A stretch of 53,529 bases of DNA, filler included, from Sluysia triapertura (Eukaryota): assembly GCA_046118255.1 (NCBI GenBank). It is 3 parts of 3 records of this genome, joined end to end, with 100 filler letters (N's around TTAATTAATTAA, not from the genome) between each part and the next. Parts side by side here need not be neighbours in the genome. Positions count along the whole stretch, not along the records: positions 24,781 to 37,187 come from JBJNIA010112533.1; positions 37,288 to 53,529 come from JBJNIA010202152.1; 1 more part is not named here. One strand, given 5' to 3'. Positions 24,857 through 53,529 of the stretch are shown one piece after another. The position numbers and the translations under genes are program-made. Every line of letters begins with the position of its first letter. Position 1 is the first letter of the stretch. Under the pieces are notes generated by a model. That model was not told the origin of the DNA, made no database searches, and was given only the letters and a program-made list of their open reading frames with translations.

Positions 24857-25806
24857 TATTCAAATGTGAATATTCAGAATGGTTCAAATTAAGTAAAAGC
24901 AGTGTCAAAAGACCATCATTATAGATTGGGTGAAACAAGAAACAAAAATGATAAAACAAGAGTAGGTCTATTAGATAAGGGGTATAAATATAAAGATAAG
25001 AAGTAAATTCCTTTACCAGGCCTTCATTTATACATTCATTCTACAATATCAGAATGTGTAATTTTAAAATAAATTGTACTACGTCAATGAAACAGATTAC
25101 AAATGAGAAATGAAGAAAGAAATATACAGAAAAAGATATTTATATGAAGAATGAAATAAAATAAATCGATATTATAAATGGCAAATAAATAATTACACAC
25201 GGATTCTTATTTTTATTGGTATTTGTAAGTGTCTCATAATAAACTTTAATAAATTTGAGTCTTCTCATTTGAGTCTTCTTCTTCAAATTAATTCATCTAT
25301 TTACATTTGCAGCTGTACCATAAGATACGAGTCACAATCAAAATTAATTACTGTTAATGTGACAAAAACAATTACAACTGTGTTAAACGCTCGCAGAATT
25401 GTGAAAATTCACATTAGATGAATATGCCCGCTCTAATTCCGTAAATAATTGTGATAAAAATTTATTATTTATTACTATAAAATAAAAATACTTTATAATA
25501 TTATATAATTTGTGTTTATATCTATATTCAATAACTTATTAATATCAAAATTATTCGAAAATTTCATAAAAATCTCAAACTACAATCCCTTTTAATTTTT
25601 ATCTTCATATTTGATATTGTCAGTACTTTAACTCGTCTCTGTGTGTTGAGGCGGAAATGAAAATTATTCAAGCTCAATAACACTTTAAACTAGATTTGAT
25701 GTTGTTAAGGTAAGAACAGTTGCAGCAACCACACGTAACAGTTTACAATTGTGCTTGATTAACTTATTTTATTGGATGTATGAAAATTGAAGTTAAAGAA
25801 GTGATA

Positions 25807-25883
25807 GAATAAAAACTAAAGCTGTGATATCGTTAGTTCACCAACGTACTGGACTTACCAGCAAGGGCCAGCCGTTGGAATTT
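25807..25883. repeat. Conserved dispersed motif, copy 1 (GAATAAA...GTTAGTTCACCAAC...GACTTACCAG...CAGCCGTTGGA)
   Basis: Similar to copies at 27011-27081 and 37309-37376. Confidence 0.7.
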
Positions 25884-27010
25884 ACAAAATGAGAAAGGTA
25901 GTTAAAGTCTTGAACGTTCAATAATTTTAGAACTATATATCTTAAATGCCTGGATGTTATTCTTACTGTGTCTTGTCTTATCAATTTAAAAGTTATTTTG
26001 CACAATCATATAGCCAGGATTCTTTATAATCTAAATTATCTTTCAATTATTGATTTTTTCTTTTTAATTATATCAATAATCAATGCTGTTTTTTAAGAAA
26101 AATTTATTATACACAAAAGAAAAAACTGAAATACAATGGATAGGATAAAATAATAATATATTTTACACGAATTACTGACTGTAATTCTGATTTATTGAGA
26201 TTTTAAAAGTGAATTTTCAGTGATCTATTGCAAGATCACAAAAGTTGATTAATAAAAGAATTTAAGTATATTTTTCACCGATATTTTAAAAAATCCTACC
26301 TTAGATAAAACAAACTAACATTTACAAATGAAAATTATTCGAGTCAATATGCGAAAAATTGTTTATCCAACGATTGCGTGAGGATTGAATTTAAAATTGT
26401 GAAACAAATGAATTTGAAAATTGTGTCAAATGTGTTAATATTTATATTTTTTCGCATATTAACCTAGAAGGTTAATTTAAACAAATTAAAATTCAATTAT
26501 TTAAAAAAAATTATTTATTAAAATAAAAGTTTAATTTAAATAAATTAAAATTAAAACTCACTATTGATATAAATAAATTTCCAAATTAATAGATCATAAA
26601 ATAAATCCAAATATTAATAAAATAACTATAATCAATATTAATAAAATTAATAAGATTCAAGGTGTTTACAATAAAATCAATAATATTGTTATCGACGCGC
26701 ATATAGGCAATGACAATGCAGTCGCTGTCCATTAACGTGTTAATAGATGATCAATTTATTTGTATTATTTGATTATTCTATATTTTAATTTATATCTTGT
26801 AATTGTTTAACAGCTTATTTATTTTAATTAATTTTGTTGTATTTCACCCTGATAAAATAATTACAGATACCACGACAAGGCTCAAATGATAATACCTTGT
26901 AATATCCCGAAATCAAATATAGCAGTGTAGTTAAAAACAATACAATGCATACCATGTTGCAAATCTGCTGATAATAATTATTGCGAATAATTTTTTTTCT
27001 CTTGTCTTAT

Positions 27011-27081
27011 GAATAAAGAACATATATAGTGAGTTCACCAACCTATCTAGACTTACCAGTTATGGCTAGCTTTTGGATTTT
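27011..27081. repeat. Conserved dispersed motif, copy 2
   Basis: GAATAAA...GTGAGTTCACCAACCTATCTAGACTTACCAGTTATGGCTAGC...TTGGATTT. Confidence 0.7.
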
Positions 27082-28378
27082 AAAACTATAAATTTTATTA
27101 TGATTAATAATAAGACAAATTTTATCACTTAAATGTATTATTAACAGAATTATGCTACAACGGAATTAATATAATAGATAATAAATTACAAAATTAACTG
27201 TTCTGAGTTAATGTAATAAACAGTGATTTGAACAAATATTTTGCGTTAAAACTTTTGAATAGTTCTACAATTATCAAAATTAACGATTTTAAGTCAAACA
27301 TTATGTTGTACCTATTAAGTACGGCCTTAATTAAAAATAAATTAATTGTTCAAGAGTCGGTTCCTTCGGATTATAATATCAATCCACCAAATTTTGCACC
27401 AAGAGTAATTGTCAAAATTGTCGTAAAAACGTATTGTATTATGAAAATTATTGTAAATGTTACGTTATTTTATAATAGTTCTAGAAATGACCTTGACATT
27501 AATTTTAATAATTTAAACCAAGTAAAAATAACAAAAAATGTTAACAAAATTTTTTTTAATCCAAATAAATTACTTTAAAACTTCTAAAAATGAGTGAGTT
27601 CGCATGTGATCAGATATTTACGCAATTAAGGGTTCGTCCACAGGATTTAGGTACCATTAACTACGTAAAAATTTATTGCTTAATCAGTGTATAATTTCTA
27701 CATAACAACCTTGGTGAATAACTCAATTGAATAACTTTATGTCCTCGTAATAATGAGGTTTGGTTTATGATTTTATAATCCTGTATTAAAAAGGATCTGA
27801 AAATGATAAGTTTATTACCGTAACTAAACCGGTGTTGAAAAAACAATTAACTAGTGATTAAGACTACATACATTATTTGCCTTCTGTAGATTTGTCTTCA
27901 TAAATTATAGAATTATATATTGTAAAATTATTGTTATTTCTTTTATTGTTATAGTGTTTATTACTTGACTTATAAAAGTTTTTATTCATATGTAAATAAA
28001 CTTTATTACAAAACTAGTGCTTAAGGTACTCGAACATTTTGTTACGAAAGAAAATTTTAATGCAAAAATAATACGAAAGTTCTTTATTCAATATAAGTAA
28101 CATAAATTTTACAATAATTGATGACACATATGTATAACAGACGAATCTAAATATATAATACTTACATTTATTAAGGATAATAACTATATAACCAGAACTC
28201 AGATGGTTATGTGAACTCATCCCATATTTTTCAATAATATAAGTTCCATAATAAGATTTTGAACATAAAAGTAGTTGAAATAATGGAATTTACAAACATA
28301 CTTGATACTGTAAAAAATCTTATAGCACAAAAGATATTTTGAAACAACATAAACCCCTCCACAAAACCTTGAAACAAA

Positions 28379-29782
28379 TTATAACTGTTGTGGTTTAGTA
28401 TAATTAATAAATTTCAAATTATGCTTTAAATTTTTTTGATTAAAAAATATGTAAAATCGATTAATAAAGAAATTAATAAGTTCTAAGAAATTCTTTTTTT
28501 TAATTAAAATTTGAAAACAATCCTCAACTTTTTGTTCAATAAAGAATAAACAAAATTCACATGAAAATTTATTTATTATAATTTTGAATTTTATGTACAG
28601 TCTTCTGTGTGTGCTCCTGATGCGTTTCCACATTTCACTACCTGAATAACAAATAAAAATTACAATATTATCAACGTAAATAAAACAATTATTTACTCCT
28701 TGCTCGTTAATGATTAAGTTGTTGACAGTCAAATTCATAGTCAATGAACTAAGACTCATGACTAGTTCTGTTATTCTAGAAGAATGATAGTTATAATTTG
28801 AATCGTTTCTCTTGATAGAACCCAATTCACAGACTGTATGAGCATAGAAGCAGTAAATTCCACTCTTTATACATATACCATTGTTGTCAGTACTGAATGG
28901 GCAAAAAGGAATCTCGTTAAATTGGTTTGAATCTGACCTGCTTAACTGACTTATATGTTTTCTTGATTGTTTTGTAACGCTTCCTTTAAATTTTAATACA
29001 TAATCAAACTCTTCATCAATAGCATCATCTTCATAATTGTTTACTGGTGGCTCATTTAAGAAAAACTCTTTCGATTTAAATTGGTGCTCATAGTGCGATT
29101 TTCTATTTGTATGAATTAACATGTAAACAGATTTTTCGAAAATCATTGTGTATATATAAGATATATCTTGTTTAATTTGTACATCAACATTATTAGTGAG
29201 AGTATTAAGCAATAATTTCTTTATTAGTTCAAATTCTTATGTTACCTTTAAATCATCTTTAGGTGTATATTTAGTTGGATCTCTTTTATAGATTACAATA
29301 TTCACATAAATCAACGGCATGCCATCATGAAGCCAAGTAACGGTTGATTTAATCAAAGCTCTAATCATATTCACTTTGTCAGCTTTCTGGGTTCCAGTTG
29401 CTAAAATAGGTGTAAGTAAAGACCAGTCTTTGTCATTAAGTGTTGTAAACCAGGCTCAGAAAACATCACTAATTAGAGAAGTATGGTTGTGAAAACTAAA
29501 TTTGCTATGTCCTGCCTGTAACACAATAAACGTTTATAAGGTAAATGACATTGTGAATCTTTCTATGACCCTTCGTAGAACTTCATGTTTTGACTCGCAA
29601 AATTCAACAATCAGGCATGAATTAATTTCTAATATACCAATTACGGTTCTTGGTATAGGCATATACTTATTTGGAAAAACGAGGTCCAAAATTAAATTGA
29701 TTTTATATTTTAGAGGCAAATTAATTGTCTCTCTCAGTAACACTTCTAGCTTGTCATTTTTGCCACAAATTTTAATATTCAT
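28379..29782 (-). pseudogene. Intronless Roquin-like (ROQ + CCCH zinc finger) ORF of 468 codons with three premature stops
   Basis: ORFs 29534-29782 and 28379-29212 share one frame. CCCH finger: CPFSTDNNGICIKSGIYCFYAHTVCEL. The N-terminal part aligns by eye with the Roquin ROQ domain. Confidence 0.55.
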
Positions 29783-29799
29783 AATGCCATAAATTTCTA

Positions 29800-31321
29800 T
29801 TCTTTTATTTATTAAAAAAATTTTAGAGACAAAACTTTTTGATCAAAATAAAATTTCGGAGAAAAGATTTTTTGATCACGCTTTTTGTTGACTATAAACT
29901 TTTTGTTATTAATTATAAAAATAATTTTTATTTTTCAATATGTATTCTATTTTTAGCTACATATAACCGGATTGGCCATTGTATAAAATTCGTCTTTTTT
30001 AATCTCTTTGATACATTTTTATGAAAACTCAACTTGATTGGCTGTCCAACCAGATGTGTTGAAATGATACAAACTGTAATGCTAGCTCTAGTTGGATGGC
30101 CAATGGAAACAAGCAAAACATTAATATCAATCATAGCTGATTAAATTACACTGTGATGACAACATCACAACAGTGATGTTAAACTATAACTGCAAATCGA
30201 AATGTCATTGCTGATGATGGCAGCTACCCAGTTAATTGTCTATACGGTTGATAAAATAAATTAACAAATAATAATGAAAAATAAAATGATTATATTAATA
30301 ATAGTAACAATAATGTTATTATTATTACTATTATTACTAAATACATAAATTCTTTATCTTCTAAAAACACAAGCTTTCTTTTATATTCTTTACTTTTCGA
30401 CATTTGAAATTTAAAAAAATGATGGAATTAAGAATGATAACAATAATAACAAGAACGAAAATGTTATCGTTATTATTGTTATTAAAATGCATAAAGTCCT
30501 TGTTTCTGAGTTTAACATGATCTTACATTTGATTCCGTTCTTTCTTAACATATTAAAACAGATGAACCTTAAAGAATTGAGAGTCTGCCATGTTACAGCT
30601 TAATGTTATGTAATTTGGATAAGGTTTTAAGGTGTAATAGTGATGTTAATGTTTTAAGAAAATGCGTAAGGAGTTTTAATATAAATTTTAACTGCTGTTT
30701 TCTAGTTTTACGTGAATTTTAGATCTTTCTTACTGAAGAGATATTAGAGTGTAGAAGGTTATAATTTAAGTACTTTGAAATAGTATAAATATTAAAAATG
30801 GATGATAAATCTGCATTGGTGTTTTGAAAGAAAGTAATGTTTAGCTGTTAGGATTTAAATGATAACGAATGATGAATTTAAAATGTTCGAGTTAATTTGA
30901 AGGTGTCAGGTAGATAATTTCGAATGTGGTTGTAGTTTGCTTGTTATGAAATGTCGAGTAAAATATTTTTGATGAATATCTTAATGTAAATTGATGGTAA
31001 TGAATGTCACTGTGTTTCGAATGTTATAAGGTTGTAGATTTGAAATGTGGGAGTTTATCTCGGTGGATCTGAAAAGGAATAAGATATAAAAACGGTTGTG
31101 ACGAATTTTACAAGGTTGTTATGTGATGTTGAAAAGAATATTTTAATTATTTTTGTATTAATTGTGAATTTGAAAGTGTGAGCTGTAGATTTTGGAGGTG
31201 AATGTTATATTGGCAAAGACTTACGTAAAAAAAATTTTTTTAATGAATTTTTTTGGAAATGTGAAATATAATTAAATAAATTTTTAATAAAATTTGTTAA
31301 GGTAATATGTTGGCCACCACA
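29800..31321 (-). mobile_element. LTR-like leader (unit A)
   Basis: Starts TGTGGTGGCCAACA on the minus strand, then about 1 kb of C/A-skewed sequence, a TTA-rich tract, an AACTGGGTAGCTGCCATCA motif and paired CCAAT hairpins. Homologous to 51076-52327 and 32940-33350. Confidence 0.65.
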
Positions 31322-31329
31322 ATAACATC

Positions 31330-32900
31330 AACGTTATGATATCTTGCAGAACATTAAATTCAAAGTAAACAATCGTGTTGATATGATAAAATTTAGAAGC
31401 ATTTAAAATATCACATTCAGAATAAACAATAATATTGATGTAAATTTTAGAAACATTTAAGACGTTGTATTGCTTTTCATGAATATATTCAATTGCATTA
31501 TGAGTATCAACTTTAGCTATTCTTATACTTTTAAAATTATTTAAAATGTTAAACTTTAAGTAAACAATCATATCGATATAAGATTTAGAAATAATATCAT
31601 CATGGTTAATATCACTATATGCTTTAATATTGAAATTTTTATCTTTGTTCCAAATTTTAGTATTTCTGTTAAGAAGTGGTGGAGTTAAAGTTTCAACACA
31701 ATCTCCATCAATTTATTTACTTTTTAATTCTTTAAGTTTTGGAGGAATCCTTTTGGTTTCAGGTACTTTGTTTGAATTTTCTGTTACTCTATGATTTGAT
31801 AACGAATCGGTGCTTTTATTGTGATGCTCTTCTGGGAATATTTGCTCTTTTATAATGCCATTTTCCATTATTACATAGATCACAAGGTTAGTCCACGTAT
31901 CTTCTTTTGATAATTTTCTTAAAACTTGAACAACAGTATTGGTCCAAACCATCTATCTACTAACTTTCCTTCTACTTGACCAAAAGAACATATGATTGGG
32001 ACGGAATACGGTGATTTTTTGGATCAGAAAAAAGTTTTACAATTTTTTCATAAGTTTCATCTATCTTCATTGCCTTCTCAGATGGATCAACATTAAGACT
32101 TGTACTAACATCATTTGATGACATTATACATAAAAACCCAAGCAGTTGTTAAACTATTTAATTTGTTTATAGAGACAAGCTGTTTATGAACGTAAGAAAA
32201 AATGTCTTTTCGAATTTATTTTCTGTTGTATAAAGTACTATACTGTTTCTATTCGTATTGAAACAAAGTCTGAAATTCCCGATTCATATCCATTATTTAT
32301 TACTTCGATCTTAATATTTTAACAACATTTTTCGTCATTTTCAAAAAATTTTAAAATTAAATCTACAATTTTTGCATTATTTAAACAATTGAAGAAAATA
32401 TTTGAAATTAAAATTTCAACACATATTATTTTTATAGATACATATTATTTTTATGGATACTAAGGATATTAACGTTTAAGTTTATGAAATTTGTCTTTAA
32501 GGTAGCTAAAGAAAAAATCGTGTTCTTCTTCGTTGTTGGCCTTACCATCAATATATTCTCTTCTGCTTATTTGCATAAATTCACATCCAGCATTGTTATC
32601 TTTATCATCATTAGGATTACAATTGTAAGAATCATAATGCTCGAATTCGACATTAATAACTTTATTATTACACATTTGGTAATCGTCATACACAACTTCA
32701 TCGGCTTTATCCTGATTATCTCTAGTAATCATAGCTGGAGTATTGTTATCTTTACTATTGCAGATCAAATTAGACTTATATTCGTCGTTGCATATAATAT
32801 AATCGTTACATTTATCATCACGAATAATCATAACTTACGTCTTTACTATTGTTGATCATGTTAAACTCAACTTTGTAAATGCTGCCAAATTGTGTTAGAA
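31330..32900 (-). pseudogene. Decayed intronless ORF (D/N-rich N-terminus, about 19-aa repeats at 3' end), unknown function
   Basis: Collinear ORF fragments 32469-32831, 31713-31952 and 31284-31571 lie downstream of a leader copy. Confidence 0.4.
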
Positions 32901-32939
32901 AGTTTGTACAAATTTTAATTGTTGCTGAAAATTTTTAAC

Positions 32940-33350
32940 ATGTAACTTGATTGGTTTTCAAATTGTATTACGAGATACTTTGGAAAATAACAGGATAAAA
33001 TTTGATAATCAAATGGTAATTATTGACTGGTCATCCAACCAGAAATGTTTTTATGCAAATAGTAGCATTTCTTGTTTTGGTTGTATGACCAATACAAATT
33101 AACAGAAAAATAAAGAGTGGAATCATACTGTGATGACAAGCATCATCAACAGTGACATGAAATTATAAATGTAAACTAAAATGTCACTTGATTATGTACT
33201 TCGTTAATAAAATAAATTAAATTAAATTAAAAACGGTGATAATAATAACAAAAGTATTATTATTATTAACCTAAAGGCATAAATTATTTGTCTTTTTTAA
33301 AAACATTATCTGTCTTTAAACTCTTCACCTTCTAAACATAATAGACTTAA
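32940..33350 (-). repeat. Second diverged copy of the leader/promoter module (unit B)
   Basis: Aligns by eye to 30030-30420 (TCCAACCAGA, CTGTGATGACAA..CATCA..ACAGTGA, AAATGTCA). Confidence 0.7.
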
Positions 33351-33671
33351 AATGATGACGTCTACAGAACTGTGAACTTGTGATATCAATGCCTTAAAAA
33401 AATTCATACACGTTTTATTATAAATTTTAGTTAATTCAGACTAATGTTTTAAATGAATTAAATTCAATAAAATTACGCGATTCAATCCTAGAATATATTT
33501 TTTCAGAAGTAATTTCGATAACGATAGATTAAACAATAATTAATTGGAATGTGATTTCAATGTAACTCATAAGATTAATTTTCGACCACGATTTTACCGC
33601 AGAAAAATTGTTGGGACTACTATAGTCCATGTAGTATAATGGACTATAGTAATCTAAAAAAATGTTAGACG

Positions 33672-33740
33672 GGGCTGATAGATCAGTAGATCATCGAACT
33701 GCTTAGCGAGAAGTCCCGTGTTCGAGACCCCGTCAGTCCA
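33672..33740 (+). pseudogene. tRNA-Ala(AGC)-derived pseudogene or SINE head
   Basis: GGGCTGA/TCAGTCC acceptor stem, A box TAGATCAGTAG, CTTAGC anticodon-loop remnant and B box GTTCGAGACC. The anticodon arm is partly deleted. Confidence 0.65.
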
Positions 33741-34254
33741 TTTAGGTAACAAAATATCTAATCATAAGTTAGATATGGTTTTGAATTAATTCGTCATATG
33801 AAGACTATTAGAGATAACTTTAACCTACACCATAAACTTTCAGAAAATGATTCATAATAGTGATATACTTCTTATGAATGTTTCAAGCTACGTAAGCTAG
33901 ATTCTTTCAATTAATTCAATTAAATTCATCGACCTTATCATATCACTTTATCTTATCGGTCACATTTCTCGAATAATTAGTATCTTCTTGTAAATGCTAT
34001 TTCATTTGGTCTACGTATCCTTTTTATGCTTATTGCCATCGATGCGACACGCATTTACATTAATAACATAAATTAACAAAAAAACGAGTATCTCTTTTCA
34101 CAGAAAATTTATATTATAACTTCGCATAAAATTTGTAACAAATAAAACTAATTTTTGAATTGAACAAAACTTTAACATATTATATATAAGTAGTATATGT
34201 TGACCTAAAGTGCTATCTATTAAAATTGACTAAAATAATCTAAAATTGTTAGAA

Positions 34255-34275
34255 GGAGCTGATAGCTCAGTTGGT
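34255..34275 (+). pseudogene. Truncated second tRNA-like copy (5' half only)
   Basis: GGAGCTGATAGCTCAGTTGGT with the same upstream flank (TAATCTAAAA..TGTTAGA) as the copy at 33672. Confidence 0.55.
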
Positions 34276-34279
34276 GAAT

Positions 34280-35212
34280 GTTCAAGCCTTCCTGAACAAC
34301 TTCCCTCTACCTAAACTTGCAAGATGAACTTGCCTATAGTAGATTTTCAACTTAGAAAGGCACTGGATATTGATAATTATCAGCAAGAATGACAGTTTCT
34401 CCACCATGCGGACTCTCTAAATTCTCAACCTGACCACCTACTTGCACCTTACACCAGCAATGTCGTATCTACCCATACACCACTAATAATATACCCAGTA
34501 CCACATGATTGTAATGTGATGCTGCATTACAATATAAACGGAATTCTAACCTAAGAAACCTTATCAAGCCTGACATCCGAGCCACCCGACAGCTCATTAA
34601 CAATATCAATCAAACAGATCAACCTATCATCGAAAATCTAACCTAAAGAACCACCTACCTCAATCCAATCCCTGTACAACAAACTCCAAAACACTAGTAA
34701 CTCCCGATAGATGAAATATTCCAATCTATATGTGATGTCATCCAACAAATTAACCCACCTAAATTCCCAAACATTATGTCTCAACACAAAGAAGCTTGCA
34801 ACGCGAACCATAACAACCCAGCTTGGACAAGATCTTTGCTGAAAACCAAACCAAAGCATTCCATATAATTACTGGAATATCCACCTTTCCTACCAACCCC
34901 ACACCAGAGGAATTCTGATATTACTACAATAGTGGAGCAGTACCACTGTGTGACCCACTTAAAGTCACTCACCTGCCAAAATTCATGGACTATATGACTA
35001 CCGATCCCATCCTGGAGATTGAGATCCTCACTACTTTTAAATAATGCAAGCACTCTGCACCAGGTCACAACCAAATAACATTCGGTCAACTGCTAGCCCT
35101 ACTTCTGAACCGAATCCGATTGCTTGGAAGAACTAAATACTCTACTGATAATCAAACCCAATAAATAAGACTTGGCGCAAGACGTCGCTTCATGGAGACC
35201 TACATTTATTGT
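34280..35212 (+). mobile_element. Non-LTR retrotransposon fragment (R2/NeSL-like pre-RT and start of RT)
   Basis: GC-richer block. DPILEIEILTTFK*CKHSAPGHNQIT...TLLIIKPNK*DLAQDVASWRP matches the SAPGxDxI and T-LI-K...WRP motifs. Confidence 0.75.
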
Positions 35213-35331
35213 GGACTGTGTGGGCGCTTTTGAAATCTTATAATTAATAAATTAATTTTATTTAATTTTAAATTTGTTTAAAATGTTTAAAATCTCCGTT
35301 GAAAAAAAAGAATTAACAATTAACTTTAAAA

Positions 35332-35784
35332 CTACAATTTTTTAATTATAAAACTAGGCAAAAGGCCTTTTAAAAGTAACAATTTTAACGGAACAATGAC
35401 GCAATCTAACAATTTATTAATATTGATAAAAGTTAGAAATAAACAAAATAAATAAATAAATAAAAAATAGAATGCCAGTCTCCTAGTTAAAGTCAAGTCA
35501 TCATCTCGTTTGATTGAATAGTTTGCAAACGTTGATTCATAACAGTCTTTAGGTCTTATTAATTCACTCAAAGACGATGTAACGAAACTCATTATGTTGA
35601 GGATAAACAAAACATGATACATAAATATATGGGAATATAATTTACATTTTGACATTTGATTCCATTTCATTATATAAACTGTTGATGTGTAAGTACCAAA
35701 AAATGTTAAGCATAAAATACTCAAGTGAATAAATTTTAAAATACTAAACTTCATGAAATGTTTACCATATATTGAGTAATACAA
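35332..35784 (-). CDS. Possible multi-pass membrane protein ORF or exon, unknown
   Basis: 150 open codons with about three hydrophobic segments. A tttatttag acceptor-like site lies just upstream. Confidence 0.3.
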   Translation of the reverse strand: MYYSIYGKHFMKFSILKFIHLSILCLTFFGTYTSTVYIMKWNQMSKCKLYSHIFMYHVLFILNIMSFVTSSLSELIRPKDCYESTFANYSIKRDDDLTLTRRLAFYFLFIYLFCLFLTFININKLLDCVIVPLKLLLLKGLLPSFIIKKL

Positions 35785-36147
35785 ATTTCTAAATAAAACA
35801 ATAATTTTGTTAGCATATTACAAAATTAAATCATCGATTTTTTTAAAATCACAATTTTTTAAATATTATTAATTTTTTAATATTATTAGAAGTTATTTAC
35901 AAATAATGAAAGTTATCTGTTGCATTTTAAGCTCAAGTAGTTGCTATATATTTCAATTCCAGTAAAGTGATAATTTTATAAATCTTAAAAAAATAATTTC
36001 GCAACGTAACGTAGATATATACATAAATTATACATAATCAAAAATTACATTTAAAATTTTAGATAAAACAACTTTTTTATTCAATGATGTAATTTTTGAT
36101 TGCAAAATGATATATACAGTTCGTTAATACTAATTACTTTACCGTTG

Positions 36148-37008
36148 TTATGTCACAGAATTTTTATAAGTTGAATTTACATGCACATTTTCCAATTGAA
36201 TAAACTCGTCTATATAAATATTACAATTCGGTAGAAATTCATGTCGGATTTCGGGACCCGAACAGTTTAAATGAATACTAAATTTAATTGTATCAGTCCT
36301 GATCAAAGTAACAGCATACTTAGAATATTCAGTTTGAAATTCCATAATTTGAAGAACAATAAGTAGTACAACATATCAGATGTGAAAGTCAGTATTATTT
36401 GCACTCTTTTTAGTAATTAATACAAGATCGTTAAACAAAAATATGATTACCGAGTTGATATTTATCAACTCATTAAAACTTAATTGGCACACGAGTTTTC
36501 TGTGATTTTGAATTAAATCTTTAGGTAAATGTGGGCTATTAAGTTGCTTGGAAATATCTCTAACAATGTCAGTATGACCTTTATGAGGTTTCATTTGTTT
36601 ACTTTTAATATTATCATATGTTTCGTTTAAGTAATCTTCTTTAATGAAGGACTCATTATTTATATGTTTAAAAAGATTAATAAATTGTTCCTTGGTCATA
36701 TATCTTGTTTTCTAGCCGATGGATTAAATGAAATATTATGGAGCATCAGAGTTGTGAAGCACTATAGAATCAAGATTTTATAACATTTCTTAAAATTCGG
36801 GATTATGACATAAATATGCATCTCTGAAATCTTCTAATCTATTCAATATCTTTTGAGTTTCACCAATAGTTATGTAGTTTTCATTACTTGCATTATATTG
36901 GAATTCTGCAATTTGAGATTTAATGAGGTTTGCTGGCGTAATTATTACATAATTTAGAATGATGTTGCTGATGTTAATATGAAAGTTATTATGTGGCAAT
37001 CGTGGCAA
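36148..37008 (-). pseudogene. Intronless, frameshifted IQSEC/BRAG-type ArfGEF fragment (Sec7 C-half + PH)
   Basis: GETQKILNRLEDFRDAYLCHNP (Sec7 motif 1 with the Glu finger), ILIL*CFTTLMLH..FNPS (motif 2), MTKEQFI..YDNIK, then HRKLVC and IFLFNDLVLITK (IQSEC PH). Confidence 0.8.
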
Positions 37009-37187
37009 TTATAACATACGATTTTAATACTAATAATTATTATATATTTTAATACGATTGGATCTGTAATAACAATAGTTATAGTTCGTGATAGTTATGT
37101 ATAATGGTTATGTTTGTTTTTTGAATGAGTCTAGTAGTTTGTTTAATGATCTGTGTAAGTAAGTGATGTTTTTATGTGATGAAGTGT

Positions 37188-37287
37188 NNNNNNNNNNNNN
37201 NNNNNNNNNNNNNNNNNNNNNNNNNNNNNNNTTAATTAATTAANNNNNNNNNNNNNNNNNNNNNNNNNNNNNNNNNNNNNNNNNNNN
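37188..37287. other. Artificial assembly join (N44 + TTAATTAATTAA + N44)
   Basis: Same spacer as 24681-24780. Confidence 0.95.
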
Positions 37288-37308
37288 AAACTTAATTTAT
37301 GTTCTCAA

Positions 37309-37376
37309 GAATAAAATTATAAATGTGAGTTCACAAACGTATCTAGTCATACTGGTTAGAGCTAGCCGTTGGATTT
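37309..37376. repeat. Conserved dispersed motif, copy 3; downstream 37380-38100 has patchy similarity to 27180-27500
   Basis: GAATAAA...GTGAGTTCACAAACGTATCTAGTCATACTGG...GCTAGCCGTTGGATTT. Confidence 0.7.
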
Positions 37377-37544
37377 TTTAGAAGAAAATAACTACAGGAG
37401 TTCAATTAACTGTTCTAGTAGTGCTTACTTGACTTATCAAATATATTTAAATTTTCATAATTAAATCGATCTCTTACTTCTTTATTAATTGATTTTGTGA
37501 AAAAACTCTCTTTAGAATAGGATCTGTAAACAATGGATTTTGCG

Positions 37545-38730: not shown

Positions 38731-38859
38731 ATCTAATTAGAACGTCTCCGACCAGGTAAAACGTATCTAATTAGTCGAACTGATCCTCACGGTCTTTTGG
38801 TAAGTATAAGTTGACTAAACACTTAATAATAATTAATTCCAAGTTTTTCGAGTACTTTT

Positions 38860-39210
38860 TCGAGTACTTTAATATAAACTCAGTTTGAAACTTTATTTGT
38901 TTGTCGTTTTTAATTAATGTCGATACTTCTGCACTTAAATCTTTACCACTCTTTGATTTAGCTGGTACAGTTCTTGAAAATCTTGAAAGCATATTTGTAA
39001 ATCTTGAAAATATATTTGTAATCAGTACAAATCTTTTCCATAATGTATGTGGTCCTCTTGTTTTACGTGTTCGAAATATTCGTCTCATTGGTTTATTGAG
39101 TCAGTATGCCAACTGATTTCTCAACCATTTATCGTCTCCTTCGTCTACTCTTGTGTAATCAACTGGGATTTTTTGGAATCGGACCATATATTCATCGATT
39201 TTGTCTTCAT
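38860..39210 (-). mobile_element. Polinton/Maverick-type integrase remnant (N-terminal half)
   Basis: IWSDSK(NPS)...KWLRNQLAY*LNKPMRRIFRTRK...LW...IFSRF..TVPAKSKSGKDL...FQT resembles YYDPKNP..WL..Q.AYTLHKP.RR.F..RK...FSK.AW..PLK.K.G...QTD. Confidence 0.7.
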
Positions 39211-39229
39211 CTTCTTTTTTTGATCCTCC

Positions 39230-39536
39230 ATTACAACAATATAATTACAACAATATAAAATTAGAAAATCCAAAATCTCTTCAACCAAGATACACCGGTC
39301 TCTACAAACCCATCCAATTCAATTCAAATAACAACACCACTTCCAAAACAGTTAATTTGTGTAAGCTTAAACCAGCTACAATTCTAGTTGAAGAACATTC
39401 ACAGACAATACCAAGAAATCGGTAACATTTAACAATACAACTACCCTATTAAATGAAACAGGTCTGCACAATATTGAACTAAACGTTACAGACTCATTTT
39501 AACCATCCGTCGCTCCGCGTCTTCAAGGGGGGCTGA
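39230..39536 (+). mobile_element. Gypsy integrase C-terminal remnant and polypurine tract
   Basis: KSLQPRYTGLYK...TVNLCKLKPA resembles PLQPPYxGPYK...VSIDRLKPA. IRRSA follows, then PPT AAGGGGGG (39525-39532) just before TGTGG. Confidence 0.7.
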
Positions 39537-39900
39537 TGTGGTGACCAACCCAATAATAATTGGAAATTTTATAACACAATATACACCAAAATCACCTTTC
39601 AACATTTCATAATTCATAATATTTTCAAACATTCCAAACATAAAATTATATAGCATTAAATTCACATTTAATACCGAAAATCATCAAAGATTTTCTTTAA
39701 AAAAATTAAATCAAAACAGTGCAAACTCAGTTCAACATACTTCACACAAAATCACATTCCATAACATTCTATAATAGTATTATGTGTTTAAGATAAATTA
39801 ACACACATTTGTATGTCGATGCTTAGCATTGGTCAGCTATATTTTTGTTGAATTAGATATCATTTCAATAATAGTAACTGGGATAACAATTTTAGATAAA
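39537..39900 (+). mobile_element. Start of 3' LTR (end not located)
   Basis: TGTGGTGACCAACC lies 4 nt after the PPT, followed by a C/A-skewed tract. Confidence 0.7.
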
Positions 39901-39970
39901 CACAAAAATTAAAAGAGTAAATCATAAAAAATTTTTATAGTACTGATAAAAGTATAATACTTTTTTAATA

Positions 39971-41181
39971 ATGATAACAATTGCAGCTAAATTATCCGGA
40001 ATATTAGATTACATTTCCAAATTAAAATGGTCAAAGCCGGCTCAAGTTCAACAACATGCTATACCATTTTACTGAAACGTAAAGATGTTATTGGTTTATC
40101 TAAAACCGGCAGTGGAAAAATTGTTCCCTATGGTATTCCATTTATTTAACAATGTCTGATCAACGATCAACCATTAATGTATGTAATGATTTTGATTCCT
40201 ACAGTTGAATTAACAAAACAAAAGTATGTTCTATTAATAAGAATGAGTAAAGGATTAAATCTTAAAACAATGTGTTCAACTAGAGGTATAGATATGACCG
40301 ATCAATTAACGGAACTTACTATTTTACATGTCCACATTGTAATAGCAACTCCGTGTCAAATTTTAATGATGTTCCACAATCCCAATCAAATTAAGGAAAT
40401 TTTTTATTCTATACAACATTTGGCAATTGAGGAGGCAGATAAAATTATGCGTTATCAATTAGATGAAGAGATCGAAAGAGTTTTACGAATGTTACCACCA
40501 AAGTTAAGTTATAAAAGAAAGGAGAGAAATAAAAAGATGTTCAAACGAATACAAATTCATTCAGCAACATGTTGTGGCGAAGTTGAAAAGAAGTATGATG
40601 TTCAACTTGTTGATGTCACATTTAAAAAATAATTTTCCAAGACGTTTGAAACTTTATGTTTGGGCTGTGTCAAATGATACTGAAGATAAAGTTACTTTTA
40701 AAGTAATATGTGAAACATTAATGCATTATACTGATAAAACATATCTAATCAAAGTTTTAGTCTTTGTTAATGATGGTCCTGATACATGAATCCAGTATAA
40801 GTAAAATGAATGTTAAAACATTTCGGCAATATGCTCGGATCCGAGAATGCTTCGACAAAAACGTGAACTAAATAGGAATCCCTTCAAATCGAGTGATACG
40901 TATGTATGTTTACTGCTGATTTTTCCATTAGAGCGTTAGATGTCAAAGATATCCTTTTAGTCGCCAATCTCAACGTTCTAGGAAATGTGGATCCTTATCG
41001 TTATAGAGTTAGTAGAACTGCAAGAAATGTTAAAACAGTTTCTGTTCCTACCTTCGTATTTCGTGAAATAAATGATATAAAAGTAAATTTTATTAATCTC
41101 CTAATTGATTTGAAATTAACTTTATTTTTTGTTTATTCAGTAGAATCTATACTTTTGCCATGTGGTATATTCAGAAAATGA
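39971..41181 (+). pseudogene. Intronless degenerate DEAD-box RNA helicase
   Basis: Q motif (WSKPAQVQQHAIP), I SKTGSGK, Ia PTVEL, Ib ATPCQI, II EEAD, III SAT, IV LVFVN, V IRALDV, VI YRVSRTAR. Frameshifts and stops present. Confidence 0.9.

Positions 41182-43623: not shown

Positions 43624-43684
<61 letters not shown>
43600..43684. repeat. (TTA)n microsatellite
   Basis: Visible run; it causes the poly-Leu ORF 43513-43737. Confidence 0.95.
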
Positions 43685-43687
<3 letters not shown>

Positions 43688-44178: not shown

Positions 44179-45616
44179 ATGTGTCATTGGTATAAAAATC
44201 AATTAAAAACGAATTTCGTGTTGAGTTTCGAATTACTGGTGCACCTAAATATATTATATACTTTCACGAATTTGTTTTTATCGAAACACAATCAAAAATA
44301 TTTTTTGTTTACTTTTCAACATCAAGTAACCAATTTTTATGTAATGTTTGTAAAAGCCAGGAACCTTTAGTCTTCCAAATGTCAGAATTTCTTAGCATTA
44401 AAATCTATGAACCTGTTGAATTTATAGATAAAAATGTTAGTGTATTGAATGATGGAACTTTGAAATGGTTCTATATATCATCCTCTATTTCTACTAACTA
44501 ATTTTAATAAGTGTATCGAAATACGCATGGCTTGACCATCAATACTCATGCAAACTTTAATTTTAGACAACAATTACAATTGTATGTGTCGTTATCGTGA
44601 TCGAATACATGTGTTGTTAGACAATAATCCAACTTGTGCTTTAGTTGATACTTCAAGATTACAGTTAGTTCAAGCTTATTCACAGAATGAGAAATTCGAG
44701 TTAGCTTTAATGTTAGCCAAAACAACATACTTAGTTGTTGAAGACAAGATTGTAACTTCTAAAATTAATTGTCACTATGTAAGAATGCTGTCCAATGACA
44801 GACAATTTGAAAATTCATAGAAATGACAACAGATCCATTTGATATTCTCAATCTTTACCGAGTATTATGTCTAGAGAAGTCAAATAAAGAATTAACTAGA
44901 TGTTGAATGAAGTTTTTGGTAAAGAAGAAAACACTCAAGCTACGTACGCATTGATGGATCTTTTTGTGGATAGGCGAAATGATTTTCGGAAACGATCAAA
45001 TATAAATAATAATTCGAAACCACCAAATCAACCACAGCAATCTTTCAGTATTAAAATGTTGCTGTCAAGTCAAGAACAGTTAATCAAATATCATCCATTA
45101 ATCGATTCTATACCTCGGCACAACCCTCGACGACTACTACTCGCTATCAAGAACACATGTCTTCTCAGAGGTAATCTTATTATAACGACTCCTTCAATGT
45201 CATTCTCTGAAGTAGTTCCAGATTACGTCGTCTGCGGACACGACTCTAAAGTAATTATAATTTTTGATCTCACTAATATCATTATTATTATTATTGCTGC
45301 TGAATTACATTCTTTTATTTTCTTTAGGATCTTTGAAAGGTCGAAATCGAAACATGCTCGACAAAACATTAATGAAGAAAAAATTTTAAATTCAAATATT
45401 AAATCTTTTGACAATTCTAATAAAATTTTTGTTAAGTCCTTTGGCTTCTCGATTCATTATAATATTGAATTAAGTCTAATTGGAAGCATCAAAGAATTTT
45501 TAAACTTTCAATGTTTAATAGCAGTAAAAATAAATAAAACGAATAAGTTAATGTATCACCACAGATATAATTTTAAATTAGTTAATAAATATCATTCCCT
45601 ATCACAACAAGAATAA
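44179..45616 (+). pseudogene. Decayed intronless ORF ending in a restriction-like (PD-(D/E)XK) nuclease-like domain
   Basis: Collinear ORF pieces. RHNPRRLLLAI...VPDYVV...IIIFDL resembles the RHN and PD..D motifs of RLE endonucleases. Confidence 0.45.
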
Positions 45617-45754: not shown

Positions 45755-46175
45755 ATATCTCGTAATACATTGCGAGCAGTTTCAATTGCTTCGAAATTGC
45801 ATGTTAATGTTTCTGGAAGTTTATTCTTTATTCGCAATGCTTCTTTCCGAATATGTCTCCTCCAGCTAATATTGAACTTTCGAAAACTTTTGAAGAATCA
45901 AAAAATTATTTTCTGCTTTTTCGATAGCAAGTTGAACAGCGTCAATGTTTTCAGAGAACTTTGATATTGAATGTACTGAAATATTGTTTGGTATTGAAAT
46001 ACCCTAAATCAAGTACATAAAAATATGGACCGTTATGAGGCCGACAAATTGAGTCAATATTCAATCCAGTTTTTATAATACTATTGTTAAATAGCACCAG
46101 GAGTGTTTGCAGGATATCACTTCTCTCCTCGTCAATTAAATTTCTGTTCTTTACTCCAGATTGTTTGATTTCCAT
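45755..46175 (-). pseudogene. Decayed ORF of unknown function, convergent with the previous one
   Basis: 74-codon ORF that continues after a frameshift (...WRRHIRKEALRIKNKLPETL...). Confidence 0.3.
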
Positions 46176-48301: not shown

Positions 48302-48682
48302 TATCCCACCATGAAACTAGATGCAGCAAATGAAGACGGCAAATTATTTTATATTTAATGTTTGATTAGTAAAATTGAATTAGAAAAAGAAAGTAATATT
48401 GTATGAAATAATTATTGGGTAAAAATAATTTAATATATTATATTAATTGGATATTTAGCCATAGTGAAATGATTCTGGAGACGGTCATAATAGTATTAGT
48501 AGTTCAATATTAAAATGTGATATTTCTTATCGATTAGGAGTCACAGTATTTTGAAATAATTCGATTTTGCAATATTGATAAAATAACTAAGTATAATCGT
48601 TAAATGTGATTTATTTATTTTAATAAAGCATCGTCAGAAGAATAAGTTGCTACATGCAATAAGCGTTTGTCAAAGTCTAGAT

Positions 48683-48936
48683 CAGTGTTCTTCAAAGTTA
48701 TAGTGAAGTATCCATAAGAAAATTAGTACTGACATCAAACATCACCGAAATAGAGAGCCGAGATTTGATGTTTTATGTCAGAATCTGCAAATTCGTTGTT
48801 ATTATTAAATATATTTTAATTTTTTGGTGTTAAAATGTTTTCTTATTAAAAAATATTTACTTTATTATTTTTATTTTAGTCCCTGGGGATGGCGAAAGAA
48901 TTTGGACCCGTAGCACAATATGTGTGAAGATCCCTG
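48683..48936. mobile_element. hAT (Charlie-like) MITE
   Basis: Imperfect TIRs CAGTGTTCTTCA / TGAAGATCCCTG. Flanks GTCTAGAT / TCCTGGAT resemble an 8-bp NTCTAGAN target. Confidence 0.55.
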
Positions 48937-49124
48937 TCCTGGATTATACCCGCAGTGACTGATTAATTAGTTGTTATTAATAATGATAATTAAATTGTTT
49001 ATTTTATACAAAACAACAATATTATATTAATAATGAATAGAACAATGTACAATAAACAAAATACAAAATAATATGCAATTTTTAAAAAATAACTGCATGT
49101 CTACTATAAGAAAATATTTACAAC

Positions 49125-49533
49125 TTATGCCAGAAGCTGCCATACTGTATTTCCTTCTTGCTTCACGTGTTGTGATCTTTTAGATTTATCCAGAGCCGAT
49201 CGATGATTTTTCAAAAAAGATTTAACGTACGAGTTAGGGTTAAATTTCTTCCGTTTAAGAGATCGTCATAAAATCCGAAGCGTGTTTAACAGTGACAGAA
49301 GATCTTTTCATTGTAACGATATTATCCATCGAACTATAAGCTCGTTCATCTTCAGAGCTGCTAACTGCGATTGTTTCCATAATGACAGTGGCTTTCGATT
49401 TGGAATTTCCACTAAATCTCTAAAATCATTTATTTTAATTTCTTTTTTCCAAATAAAATTCAAAGTTCTTATTCTCTTCTCTCCTTCTGTTCATGGACAC
49501 GTAACTTCTTCCCTATTCCACGTTTCAGGATAA
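49125..49533 (-). mobile_element. hAT transposase C-terminal dimerisation domain remnant
   Basis: TIAVSSSEDERAYSSMDNIVTMKRSSVTVKHASDFMTIS resembles T.PVSSA.CER.FS.MN.I.T..R..L. Confidence 0.8.
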
Positions 49534-51075
49534 CATATATTAAATATGTTTTTCATGAACAAGGGGCTTGTGCGTGCCCCTATAGCTCACTACTGATTAT
49601 TGTGCAATTTCTTGTAAAAATGGTATCATATTTAAAATAATAATAATAATATTATTATTATTAATACCTTTATGTTAGATCTAAATCCCATTAAGGTATC
49701 TATGCATTTTATTCTACTTCGGATAAAGGAGCGAGGAAGCCGGGTGACTGTCCGATCATTTTTCAGAAGGCATCGATTTTTTTATTAATAATGTCAAATA
49801 AAGGTCACATCGCTAATTATTTTAATATTGTAAACTGTTTACAAACTGATTTTCAAAAAAATTAATTTAATTAACTATGTTTTGAATTTTTGACAAATAG
49901 AATTATAAAAAATCTTTTATGTAACAGAAATAGCATAATTTACTTTTCAAAGTTGTCGCTCCTTCGTTGCTCAAACTTCAAATGCGCTCGATTTGTTATT
50001 CCATATGTTGTAGCGCTTGTAAAAAATAACTATTGTATTATTTTTTTAAATAAATAAATTTTTTACACAGATATTTATTGTGTAATTTCGATTTTTTTTG
50101 CCTTTTTTAAATATTTTTTTTAATTCGCAGAAAGTTTGTTTATTCTTGTATGAGAAAGCGCCAAATTTTGTTGTGCCCGGGTGCGCAAAACCCTAATAAT
50201 AATAATAATATAATGAATTACGTAGTCATTATGAAAAATATTGACTAAAATAAGTATGACTTAAATAATCTGCAACAGAATTCCTAATTGTAAATGTTGA
50301 ATAAAAAAATTATTGACAAACTGACATTATTTATTTTGAATTGTATTTTATTATTTAAATATTATTTGTAGACAAATTGACACTATTTTTATTATTTATT
50401 TTATATCATTTATCTTATTAATTAAATATTATCTTTTTTATAAAATAATATAAATATTACTTAAAGCCTGAAAAAGATTTAAAAGTTAAAATAAAATATT
50501 TAAAATATAAATTTTATTAAACATCAAATTAAAATATTTAACAATTTTAAACTAAATCAATTTTCATTATTTACAATATGGCGACATATAATTCTCTATA
50601 AATAAGTGGAATTTTATTTCAACAAAGAAGCAATCTACAAAATTTTCAATTTTCAATTCCACATTCCATCAAGGGTAAAGTTTTTACATATAACTTTTCT
50701 AAAATCCTAACTGTAGCTGGTAGGATACATTTAAAATATTATTTAAACTTTAATGATTTGTCCTAGACCGTAACTGGCTAGGTTAATTTTAATCCAAAAT
50801 CTCATATTTTTTCACACCTAAGAGCTCATCTTAATGTGGTAAAATCTCTGTTATTATTGTTTTATTTTTATCTGTAAATAAATATATTTTTGTGTAGATA
50901 ATATATTTTGATAAAAATATTTTTGATTTAAGATAGTTTGTTTACGATACATTAAAATACTATATGTTTATCAGATCGTAACTGGCTGCTTTAATATCTA
51001 AATTCTTGATCGATCTGTCAGACTGTAACGTTTTCGATTATTTTAAAGTTGTTAAAGCAACTGCATAGTAATAAC

Positions 51076-52327
51076 TGTAGTGGCCAACACTCATAATTCA
51101 AAATTAATCAAAATTTCACATGTAATATTCACAAATTAAATTTCTCTAAAATTCAAATTTTAAAATAATCACACCTTCTTTATTATTGAACTTCACCAAC
51201 ACTAACATCACAAACAACATTCGATATTTACAACACCTCATCAACTCATATATATCAACAATTCAACTCACATTTCAACCATCCATAGCATAACAAACTT
51301 CGACATTTAATCTCGAATAATTCACAACATTCATTCATAAGATATTTTAACAAACAAATTACAGTCACAATATAAAATACACAAATCACTAATATAATAA
51401 GTTTCTACAACGCCAACAACTACCTTAGAAACAGACCAGTTCCACCTAAAACCTTAAGCAACAACACCAACTTAAAGCGACTTCATATACACATAATCAT
51501 CATTAACTATTACTTGTAATAACATTATAACATACCAAGACTCGTTTTGTAATCTCCATCCAAAATTAAGATAACTTCAACCTTTCATTAAACATTTCAA
51601 ACCATTCTATCCAATGCACAAATTTTGTTTTCAAATCATAAATTATTCTAACACTCTTTATTTCATTTACAACCTAAACCACGACACCTTTCGAGAACAA
51701 ATTTAAGATAACTTTAAAAACTTCATTATCATACTGCGAAGCAACAACCACAAATGATACATTATGCACTTAGTTACGGTTGTCCCTTCGCAACATAACA
51801 TTCGTTCTTTCCGTTACTTCATTCATATGTAAAGAGAAAGTTAAAAACACAAAGAAAAATGTCGTGTTCGATTCTCTATAAAGAGATTTATGTTTTTTTT
51901 TACATTTTTGCATTCATTAGTAGAAATAATGACAATATTTTTATTGTTATTGTTATTATTATTACTGTTGTTATTATTCTTATCAATACCTGAAAATAAA
52001 ATTAAAATAAATAGAATTCAATTATCGTCGTTTAAACTGGTTGCTGCCATCACCAACGATGACAGTCTGTGTACATTTTCATTAGACTGTCAACGTTGAT
52101 GACGGTCAGTAATCAGTCATCAACATTTTAATAATTTCAATTCTGACTAACACACCACCCAATCAGATTGATCACTTTTTATCTTATTATTACTAATCTG
52201 ATTGGGTGGATTAAAAATAGACTCAATTAAATAACCTACTATTCACAATTAAAAGTGTACAGAACAAAATTAAAAAATTCCAGACAAAACAAAGAATTTC
52301 AAATTTTCTTTTACTTGAATATCGAAA
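51076..52327 (+). mobile_element. LTR-like leader (unit D)
   Basis: TGTAGTGGCCAACA start, C/A-skewed tract, TTA-rich tract, AACTGGTTGCTGCCATCA motif and a 15-bp perfect inverted repeat of CCAAT boxes. Confidence 0.65.
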
Positions 52328-53529
52328 ATGAATGATGATTTAGTTACACCATATATTAATATCGATGTGAAATTAATGATGTTTTCAACACATGTCTTAA
52401 CCGGCTTTTTATGTCATTCTATTCACTATATGATGATAATTGGTAGGGAACAAAAGGATAAAGAATTTTCTTCGCTATTATGAGTTATCGATAGTGTAAA
52501 AGTTGTCAACGATCTTACTATTGTGTTAAGAACCAACCATTTTAAAATGTATAATTTGGATTTATCAAAGGAGTTATTTGAAGAATTAAACAATTTAATG
52601 TTATTTTTTATTAAGACTATTAACAACGAAAAGATAGATGATTTATATCCATTTGTAGTTGAACCAATTTTCAAGATTAATATAAATTGTTGGAATCGAG
52701 TTATATCAAACCATAAATTCCTAAAATCTTTAATATCAAGAAAGTGGGCCCACCTTCCGAATTCATTTTGTTCTAACAATTACAATTATGGTAAATATAT
52801 TGTGTTTCCTTTTTATAATAATCATGAAAATATTTTTATGCCTTTTAGAATGCATGTTAATAATCAAATTTCAGTTTTAGTATATTATCATGAAACAAAT
52901 GGTCGTAGTTTAATGAATTGTAGTCGATATTCAAATGTGGCATTAAAAATTAGTTTCGTCCATCCGATAATTAGATTATTGTTTCGTCATTATGAATTAG
53001 TACATTTAAGAATAAAATCCACGGTAGGAGTTAATCTATCAAAGAATGATAATTTAGTATTCTATAAAGTGCCAAATATACTGACAGATATTCTCAAGTT
53101 ATTCGAAATTAGACATGATAACCACCACATTAATGTTACCAACCAGAATGTAAGTCAATATTGGTCACGATTAGCTTTCAATAAATGGTCCTACCAAATA
53201 CCAAACTTATCTCGAGTTAGTCACATTTTAGTTCAATCAATTCTGAGTAATCTTGGTAGAACCTACTTATTTGTGAGCAAAAACAAATATGATTATGTAC
53301 TAATTTTGTCAAATACTGTACAATTGGTTTTACTACCAGAGATTACAACTATACAAGGTAGTCATCGATACATCTTGGCATTAACAAAAGGTACAAGTAC
53401 TATAACAAACAATTTTTATGAATGTTTAGGTAAATTCAATTTTGTTAGTTTTAAAGTAATTTGTATATCTAACTATTTTTTAGCTTATTTAGGAAAACGC
53501 GGAATCATAAAATGTTGGCGAGTGGGATG
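52328..53529 (+). CDS. Long intronless ORF of at least 400 codons with one TGA at codon 52; runs off the window; unknown product
   Basis: Hand translation from ATG 52328 shows a single stop at 52481-52483, then 348 open codons to the window end in very AT-rich DNA. Absent from the ORF track. Confidence 0.75.

Follow-up and report, generated by a model that had tools for sequence, protein, structure and literature searches.

A stretch of 53,529 bp from the genome of Sluysia triapertura (GenBank assembly GCA_046118255.1), called the window here, holds the remains of repeated elements linked to genes that resemble those of a host. On balance, this host cargo probably sits inside giant U3 (unique 3′) regions of the long terminal repeats (LTRs) of gypsy elements, and has spread as solo LTRs. 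An initial annotation, made from the sequence alone, had proposed a gypsy-type family whose LTR-like units each carry a different gene without introns. Six candidate units, labeled A–F, and three candidate ends, labeled X1–X3, are considered below; the copies in the window are dead. The G + C content is ∼25% across the window, repeats are dense, and the genes present (IQSEC, myotubularin-related, and ATG4) mark the DNA as that of an animal. Positions 24681–24780 and 37188–37287 each consist of 44 N, a 12-base spacer with stops in all frames, and a further 44 N, and the order of the sequence across both is unproven.

Starts, leaders, and the polypurine tract

The four diverged starts of the initial annotation were recovered exactly, at 31321 (−, unit A), 38324 (+, unit E), 39537 (+, unit D), and 51076 (+, unit C). 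Their motif gives 4 exact matches, compared with a mean of 0.05 and a maximum of 1 in 200 Markov simulations, a significance that is overstated because the motif was drawn, post hoc, from the same four sites. The leaders that follow can be aligned beyond the motif in four of the six pairs, above all 40 block shuffles (z of 11.4 for A–E, 5.8 for A–D, 3.9 for C–E, and 3.1 for D–E); the A–C and C–D pairs do not rise above the shuffles. The strong C skew reported after the starts was also seen, with 15–22% C and 7–9% G in the leaders. Unit F has a C-rich leader cut by a gap, as the initial annotation described for its Sec7-PH frame, and this leader does not align to the others. Abundance was judged from contigs of one public sequencing run, which may be that from which the assembly was made, aligned at 80% likeness to 25300–37187 only, with units C, D, and E outside; by the tool's own caveat, the depths given by these contigs are not copy numbers. 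The features are as follows.

30480–31321, − strand: start of unit A with C-rich, G-poor leader; primer-binding site (PBS)-like CA/TGGCAG; summed contig depth 4,109–10,554
38324–38760, + strand: unit E, start and leader only, truncated; from motif and leader alignment
39228–39422, + strand: putative integrase C-terminal tail of 65 residues; possibly GPY/F-like, no tool match
39519–39536, + strand: polypurine tract (PPT); sole G6 run in the window, 4 bases before start D
39537–39970, + strand: unit D, start of a putative 3′ LTR with its leader; lacks the hairpin module; PBS-like CA-T-TGG
51076–51900, + strand: start of unit C with C-rich leader; no PBS-like site
36990–37187, − strand: leader of unit F, C-rich, very high copy (bin depth 58,845); abuts the 100-bp spacer gap

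Start D is taken as the start of a 3′ LTR because a PPT directly precedes this TG-starting LTR. The PPT noted here in the initial annotation holds up, in that its G6 run is found once in 53.5 kb and has the geometry of a gypsy PPT. The combined pattern of PPT and TGT likewise has a single occurrence in the window, at D. Of 19 natural gypsy RNase H loci, 11 show it, with two pairs that look like duplicates. In the metagenome gypsy loci L001, L003–L006, and L019, the PPT comes directly after RNase H, giving the order of integrase before reverse transcriptase that marks Gmr1-like elements. Searches of viral contigs gave 0 matches to the PPT-start pattern and no gypsy RNase H.

The gypsy integrase tail that had been placed before 39537 was not confirmed: searches of Pfam and the PDB, a search by word index, a pairwise comparison, and a profile built from one sequence all gave no match, and the frame at 39228–39422 is a putative GPY/F-like module. 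These five tests likewise fail on the tail of the true gypsy pol (22.1–22.3 kb), which has none of these starts. A single natural tail was recovered from the 19 loci, and the profile made from it missed the true tail in the window. This separate and decayed pol (reverse transcriptase, RNase H, and integrase) lies at 21320–24680 (−), and is followed by a broken frame in the position of env that has a hydrophobic helix and two PPxY motifs that resemble viral late domains.

Together, these data support the four starts as 5′ ends of gypsy-type LTRs. Units A, C, and E are taken as starts of sister families to D, and the units are likely members of Ty3/gypsy.

A shared module before unrelated cargo genes

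30034–30258, − strand: module copy A; twin hairpin and CCAAT
33021–33350, − strand: module copy B, in which hairpin 1 has lost its 5′ arm; start of unit B not found
52020–52213, + strand: module copy C; inverted CCAAT boxes; hairpins with z of −8.0 and −5.5
28382–29842, − strand: cargo A; candidate Unkempt-type CCCH finger at ∼28832–28903; broken frame, 3 stops
31322–32870, − strand: cargo B, N-terminal half of an ATG4-like cysteine protease (match at 31839–32141); broken, truncated by start A
52328–53529, + strand: cargo C, myotubularin-related, PH-GRAM and phosphatase fold; own ATG; runs off the window
39970–41180, + strand: cargo D, DEAD-box helicase (PF00270, E 2e-18; PDB, E 4e-15)
36166–37017, − strand: cargo F, IQSEC/BRAG-type Arf guanine nucleotide exchange factor, C-terminal half of Sec7 plus PH; broken
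35332–35817, − strand: hydrophobic open frame of 161 codons, downstream of cargo F; depth 351–676

The promoter-like module that the initial annotation had seen at three places was confirmed by alignment, with 62% identity between 30034–30422 and 33023–33358 (E 3e-21) and 64% for the copy at 52 kb (E 6e-8). It consists of two inverted repeats. Hairpin 2 has folding z-scores of −3.0 in copy A and −3.3 in copy B; hairpin 1 of A and B, like the hairpin of the X ends described below, folds no better than shuffles (z −0.2 to −0.9). Hairpin 2 keeps a stem of 17 pairs in the three copies, and at 4 of these both partners have changed; the alignment of hairpin 1 gives 17 predicted pairs, 2 of them with both partners changed, a covariation that comes from three sequences and for which homogenization of the arms in DNA would give the same pattern. 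There are 3, 2, and 2 CCAAT boxes per 300 bp in the module regions, compared with 0.63 expected, and given this enrichment an RNA structure and a palindromic promoter are equally likely. A search of Rfam gave three weak matches to microRNA models, all far below the gathering score. The copies are treated as one family because 3 contigs join module B (33182) to module A (30203) across the deletion in B. The module stands in sense orientation before three unrelated cargoes, the frames of which start past hairpin 2 by 115 bp in C, ∼150 bp in B, and 250 bp in A (to its first Met). The module may act as an internal promoter or 5′ leader.

The cargoes were found to be free of introns and unrelated to each other, as had been proposed, and the claim that their frames are open did not stand, since all are broken by stops or frameshifts. 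There are 3 stops in the 487 codons of A, 1 in the 400 of C, and 7 in the 284 of F, while B and D have both stops and frameshifts. The absence of introns was judged from colinear matches to foreign homologs (for cargoes F, C, and B). No poly(A) tail was seen after the cargoes on reading the sequence.

The identities of the cargoes are of differing strength. The DEAD-box helicase at 40–41.2 kb was confirmed as an intronless, broken frame that matches DDX6/cgh-1 and DDX47 equally well and in which motif II reads EEAD. Cargo F matches PF16453 (E 5.9e-10), PF01369 (E 5.7e-8), and IQSEC1 (E 1e-10). The frame at 31.3–32.9 kb, cargo B, which had been left without an identity, now appears ATG4-like, even if it is not intact: it matches ATG4B in the PDB (E 1.8e-6, residues 75–182 of the solved chain, with an adjacent frame at E 0.74) and PF03416 at E 2.8e-4, under the cut-off, and the position of the catalytic cysteine is not a cysteine. 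Cargo A had been called Roquin-like, which was not confirmed; an Unkempt-type CCCH finger is instead suggested at E 1.4e-5, under the Pfam cut-off, with E 0.22 in the PDB. Its differences (4 to 3 sites) are too few for a synonymous test. Word-index searches for homologs of cargoes A and C gave no match.

Cargo C has 30% identity over 230 residues to P0001, colinear and starting from Met 1, which aligns to the first Met of the homolog, and P0001 in turn matches MTMR6 (E 1e-13). The CX5R motif is absent from the 400 codons of cargo C. An atlas search for cargo C gave no usable match, and P0002 and P0003 were rejected as relatives, being chance matches of low complexity. The frame has 1 stop, compared with 42 and 48 in the other two frames, despite its distance from known proteins. 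This suggests that the frame stayed open for long, provided that the host gene does not itself evolve fast.

Further frames were observed in the window. A broken one at 38771–39238 (−) lies 1.45 kb upstream of X3, the same spacing as from cargo to end in unit A, and may be a sixth cargo. Two others, open or broken, gave no Pfam match above noise: 27207–27578 (+), antisense within the 3′ region of unit A, and 44196–45616 (+).

Candidate ends, copy number, and the extent of the LTRs

25827–25890, − strand: end X1, last bases degenerate, possible end of unit B; 87 contig breaks, bin depth 62,751
27028–27085, − strand: end X2, hairpin and imperfect inverted start; from sequence comparison
37324–37389, − strand: end X3, terminal CA intact; from sequence comparison
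27028–31321, − strand: unit A, candidate complete solo LTR of 4,294 bp, with start, leader, module, cargo, 3′ region of 1.35 kb, and end

The 3′ ends of the LTRs could not be located in the initial annotation, and candidates are now available, although not downstream of D. Three related ends of 50–60 bp occur at 25831 (X1), 27028 (X2), and 37324 (X3), all on the minus strand and high-copy, with 78–79% identity over 62–77 bp. On that strand, each consists of a weak hairpin and then an imperfect inverted copy of the start, a match of ∼13–15 imperfect bases; X3 ends in CA and X2 in CT, and X1 is degenerate. At 25835, 87 contigs break and their next letters agree on TGTG, while 143 break on the inner side at family-specific sequence. 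Because the loose-end consensus at 25835 is TGTG, the terminal bases on the element strand would be CA. The alternative that X is a start on the plus strand was rejected, since the C skew is absent after X and a long frame follows just one of the three. The X-end pattern gave 0 matches in the metagenome contigs.

Within 20 bases after all X ends (25810–25834, 27012–27027, and 37306–37323, element strand) there is T-rich DNA with TTTATTC, and the loose-end consensus beyond the ends is A-rich on the plus strand, which may be a target preference or an artefact. Just upstream of start C, at 50695–51000 (+), there are two or three degenerate hairpins like those of the X ends, perhaps what is left of the distal part of a further plus-strand unit. 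At 18218 there is a short motif similar to those at 50760 and 50975; it falls in a possible further unit at 18200–20900 (+), which is C-rich at 18600–18900 and has a broken frame without identity at 19200–19745 and a 190-bp tandem repeat of 3.5 copies at 20050–20720 (+).

Upstream of X2, the first start reached is that of unit A, at a distance of 4,294 bp. In A, B, and D, the leader and the 3′ region share no direct repeat. The 1.2–1.35 kb before X1 or X2 lack a start motif, C skew, and leader homology, and none of the leaders contains an X end. For these reasons unit A is not an LTR-cargo-LTR arrangement, and an LTR that ends at X must be long. Unit A is a candidate for a cargo lying inside one TG..CA unit of 4.3 kb.

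Unit A has inverted ends and no direct repeat, and the units could instead be non-autonomous DNA transposons of the Ginger type that have TGT..ACA ends, enclose host sequence between them, and were mobilized by a gypsy-like integrase. Ginger1 and Ginger2, as set out in PMC2836005, have TGTNR ends, a similar size (2.6–7 kb), and host-like domains, but their terminal inverted repeats are long (∼40–270 bp, compared with ∼13–15 imperfect bases here), their integrase lies inside the ends, and they have no PPT. The PPT outside start D is the geometry of a retroelement, the cargoes lack introns, and the flanks of A show no CCGG/CCGT or RTATAY target; we regard this origin as very improbable. Helitrons and Helentrons were dropped on the basis of the terminal TG/CA and the PPT.

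Contig depth separates the parts of the units. Over cargo A, the three central bins have depths of 496–714 and the edge bins 183 and 267, and all bins across unit A are at least 183. Depth sums are 100–169 in the ATG4 region, 118–184 over Sec7-PH, and 4,109–58,845 in the leaders, while contigs of the window's own copy over 25300–37187 have depths of 12–23. Single contigs of depth 135–174 over cargo F differ from the window copy. The cargo bodies are covered by many divergent contigs (11 at 29555), with paralogous pieces that have 21–55 differences. Because depth is not copy number, the multi-copy state of A and F is better shown by these distinct contigs; cargo B is near background, since the lowest bin is 83. 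The data support multi-copy cargoes with termini that are far more abundant. The initial annotation's proposal would be contradicted by cargoes that are single-copy or unlinked to the starts, or by short paired LTRs, and neither was found where a test was possible. Elsewhere in this region, 33610–34271 is a high-copy repeat (depth 11,500–15,400) with two direct repeats ∼585 bp apart, both of which start with TGTTG and lead into a stretch with tRNA-like A and B boxes; a LINE-like piece (long interspersed nuclear element) interrupts the second repeat. ARAGORN found no tRNA in it, and it could be a Helenus-like terminal-repeat retrotransposon in miniature (TRIM) or a tandem short interspersed nuclear element.

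Several observations weigh against cargoes inside giant LTRs. Start, module, and cargo occur together in just two of the six units, A and C: unit B is without a start, D without a module, and E without a cargo. Within the window, no direct-repeat LTR pair around gag-pol and no intact element was found, and no X end lies downstream of D, the sole 3′ LTR start with a PPT. The flanks of unit A, TTAT and ATAT, match at 3 of 4 bases without a clear target site duplication. With 3 ends in 53 kb, chance could have placed one of them ∼4 kb downstream of A, at a rough estimate of 1 in 8. If cargo B resumed after X2, both ends of A would be fixed; no match to the C-terminal half of ATG4 was obtained after X2, where a resemblance is at most putative, and nesting of A within cargo B found no support in a 57-bp repeat test, which was not significant (rank 568 of 724). 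The background depth at 80% likeness is clearly higher than single copy (lowest bins 83–118). Among 40 of 1,283 differences listed, those in Sec7-PH are 6 synonymous and 14 non-synonymous, with 25% expected, and because there is no synonymous excess there is no sign of selection on this cargo. Finally, PBS-like sites follow starts A (CA/TGGCAG, at ∼731–732 bp) and D (CA-T-TGG, at ∼292–294 bp), and the contig depth of 4,774 at 30686 is down to 661 at 30508, on the other side of the site in A.

The PBS-like sites and the fall in depth fit LTRs of 0.3–0.75 kb that consist of the C-rich leader, with the hairpins acting as packaging or dimerization signals past the PBS, and with host cDNA in place of gag-pol in non-autonomous elements, which later rose in copy number. 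D would then represent a shared LTR of a tandem array, and the X ends would come from other families. Cargo that replaces internal open reading frames and later multiplies is described by Tan et al. (2016, PMC5131818), and CsRn1-like LTRs in the rows listed from PMC2582038 are 146–368 bp with 3-bp inverted ends. Nevertheless, a pattern search of the four leaders found a PBS-like site neither in E nor in C, the unit with the least damage, and no second LTR copy lies downstream of any cargo (3′ regions of A, B, and D compared). Furthermore, there is no pile of loose ends near 30590 among six listed of 2,314, one contig bridges 30442–30541, and X ends that mirror the starts would be left without LTR bodies. 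Short LTRs, the main alternative, are in our judgment somewhat unlikely.

A different explanation is that LTR pieces, processed pseudogenes, and segmental copies came together by chance nesting in a repeat sink, and that short-read assembly formed chimeras by joins through the leaders. The very high density of repeats, the tRNA-like repeat and LINE-like piece inside unit B, and the two 100-bp gaps are consistent with this, as are the facts that no contig among those listed spans the whole stretch and that two of six units are complete on the 5′ side. Chance does not readily account for one module that precedes three different cargoes in sense orientation at 115–250 bp from the frame, nor for cargo bodies under many divergent contigs with no poly(A) tails seen, and we consider it improbable.

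Proposed mechanism and comparison with known systems

If cargo placement within giant U3 regions is correct, the elements would belong to a diversified group of Ty3/gypsy (Metaviridae-type) elements with LTRs of ∼4–5 kb, present here as decayed copies nested in each other. Such an LTR would run from the TGT..CAAC integrase end through the C-rich leader, the twin-hairpin/CCAAT module (in some families), the cargo, and a family-specific part of ∼1.2–1.4 kb to a hairpin end closing in CA. Reverse transcriptase may have switched to a co-packaged host mRNA while copying U3, which would duplicate the cDNA into both LTRs. Capture of host cDNA by template switching into the internal regions of LTR elements is established (PMC5131818), and its placement in U3 is inferred here. 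Recombination between LTRs could then have scattered the cargoes as solo LTRs, with expression from the module. The cargoes may have stayed open for a time as accessory genes, perhaps as inactive decoys, with autophagy and endosomes (ATG4, myotubularin, and IQSEC) and mRNA decay (DEAD-box and CCCH) as potential targets. These pathways restrict or host retroelement particles. Catalytic motifs are altered in three cargoes, and in B and D later decay could explain the changes.

A broader proposal is put forward tentatively, as possible rather than probable: a gypsy radiation with a giant U3 gene slot, in which a twin-hairpin promoter, maybe a source of small RNA, drove interchangeable host-derived accessory genes that acted as decoys against autophagy/endosomal and mRNA-decay defenses, leaving thousands of solo-LTR cassettes. 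If true, different host genes have filled the same LTR slot downstream of a common promoter, and accessory genes were acquired in series. This would offer a route to mass gene duplication, as each solo LTR would keep both gene and promoter, and would point to host pathways that restrict these elements. Such cassettes would also mislead annotation, since the cargoes look like host gene families. If the LTRs are short, the elements amount to LTR-mediated retroposition of a known kind on a large scale. The usual place of captured host mRNAs is the internal region of LTR elements, and genes within U3 are known from a few retroviruses, each as a single fixed gene. In listings of the open-access literature, no account was found of an LTR slot occupied by different host protein genes.

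Published systems share some of these features. LTR retrocopies of the Tan type (PMC5131818), found in animals, also have intronless captured cDNA, non-autonomous multiplication, and partial cargo, comparable with the half Sec7 domain. Their cargo takes the place of internal frames between two LTRs, whereas in the window the cargo has no second LTR copy beside it, different cargoes have the same module ahead of them, and the cargoes have diverged far from known homologs. Burro/GYPSM1 elements (PMC6431247; Burro is also mentioned in PMC11410931) are giant gypsy elements of planarians, in an AT-rich animal genome, with host-like accessory domains and thousands of copies. As described, they carry AIR1, SMC, MATH, BIR, and BCL2 in internal polyprotein or accessory frames, in contrast with the cargoes found here. 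Six-frame scans of 12,001–53,529 gave no Pfam match to domains of this type (AIR1/SMC/MATH/BIR/BCL2, env); the parent element may lie outside the window.

Host-derived sequence inside LTRs is found in the TRIMs Cassandra, Helenus, and Ajax (PMC10886601), where the captured part (5S rRNA or tRNA) is a small-RNA promoter and not a protein gene. LTRs of more than 3 kb are infrequent (PMC3485330). LTRs of 2–6.5 kb nevertheless exist, as in the long-LTR plant elements Ogre and Retrosat2; those of Ogre are treated as non-coding. The general rule for LTRs is that of short inverted ends and a variable U3 (PMC3601003). The starts and X ends in the window give short inverted TG..CA ends, as in Ty3/gypsy elements, and the same is true of the PPT directly before a TG-starting 3′ LTR, at start D only.

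Foamy viruses have a long U3 with a coding frame, ORF-2, and paired hairpins in the form of dumbbell microRNAs (PMC7104284). The hairpins of the module have long loops (23–30 nt in hairpin 2), and T runs break the sense strand. In mouse mammary tumor virus, sag is encoded in the LTR, and the LTRs of both this virus and foamy viruses are far shorter than 4 kb. Each of these viruses has one fixed viral gene, whereas five unrelated host genes are found here. The feature seems to work as the U3 accessory genes of retroviruses do, with LTR-mediated retroposition as the route of acquisition.

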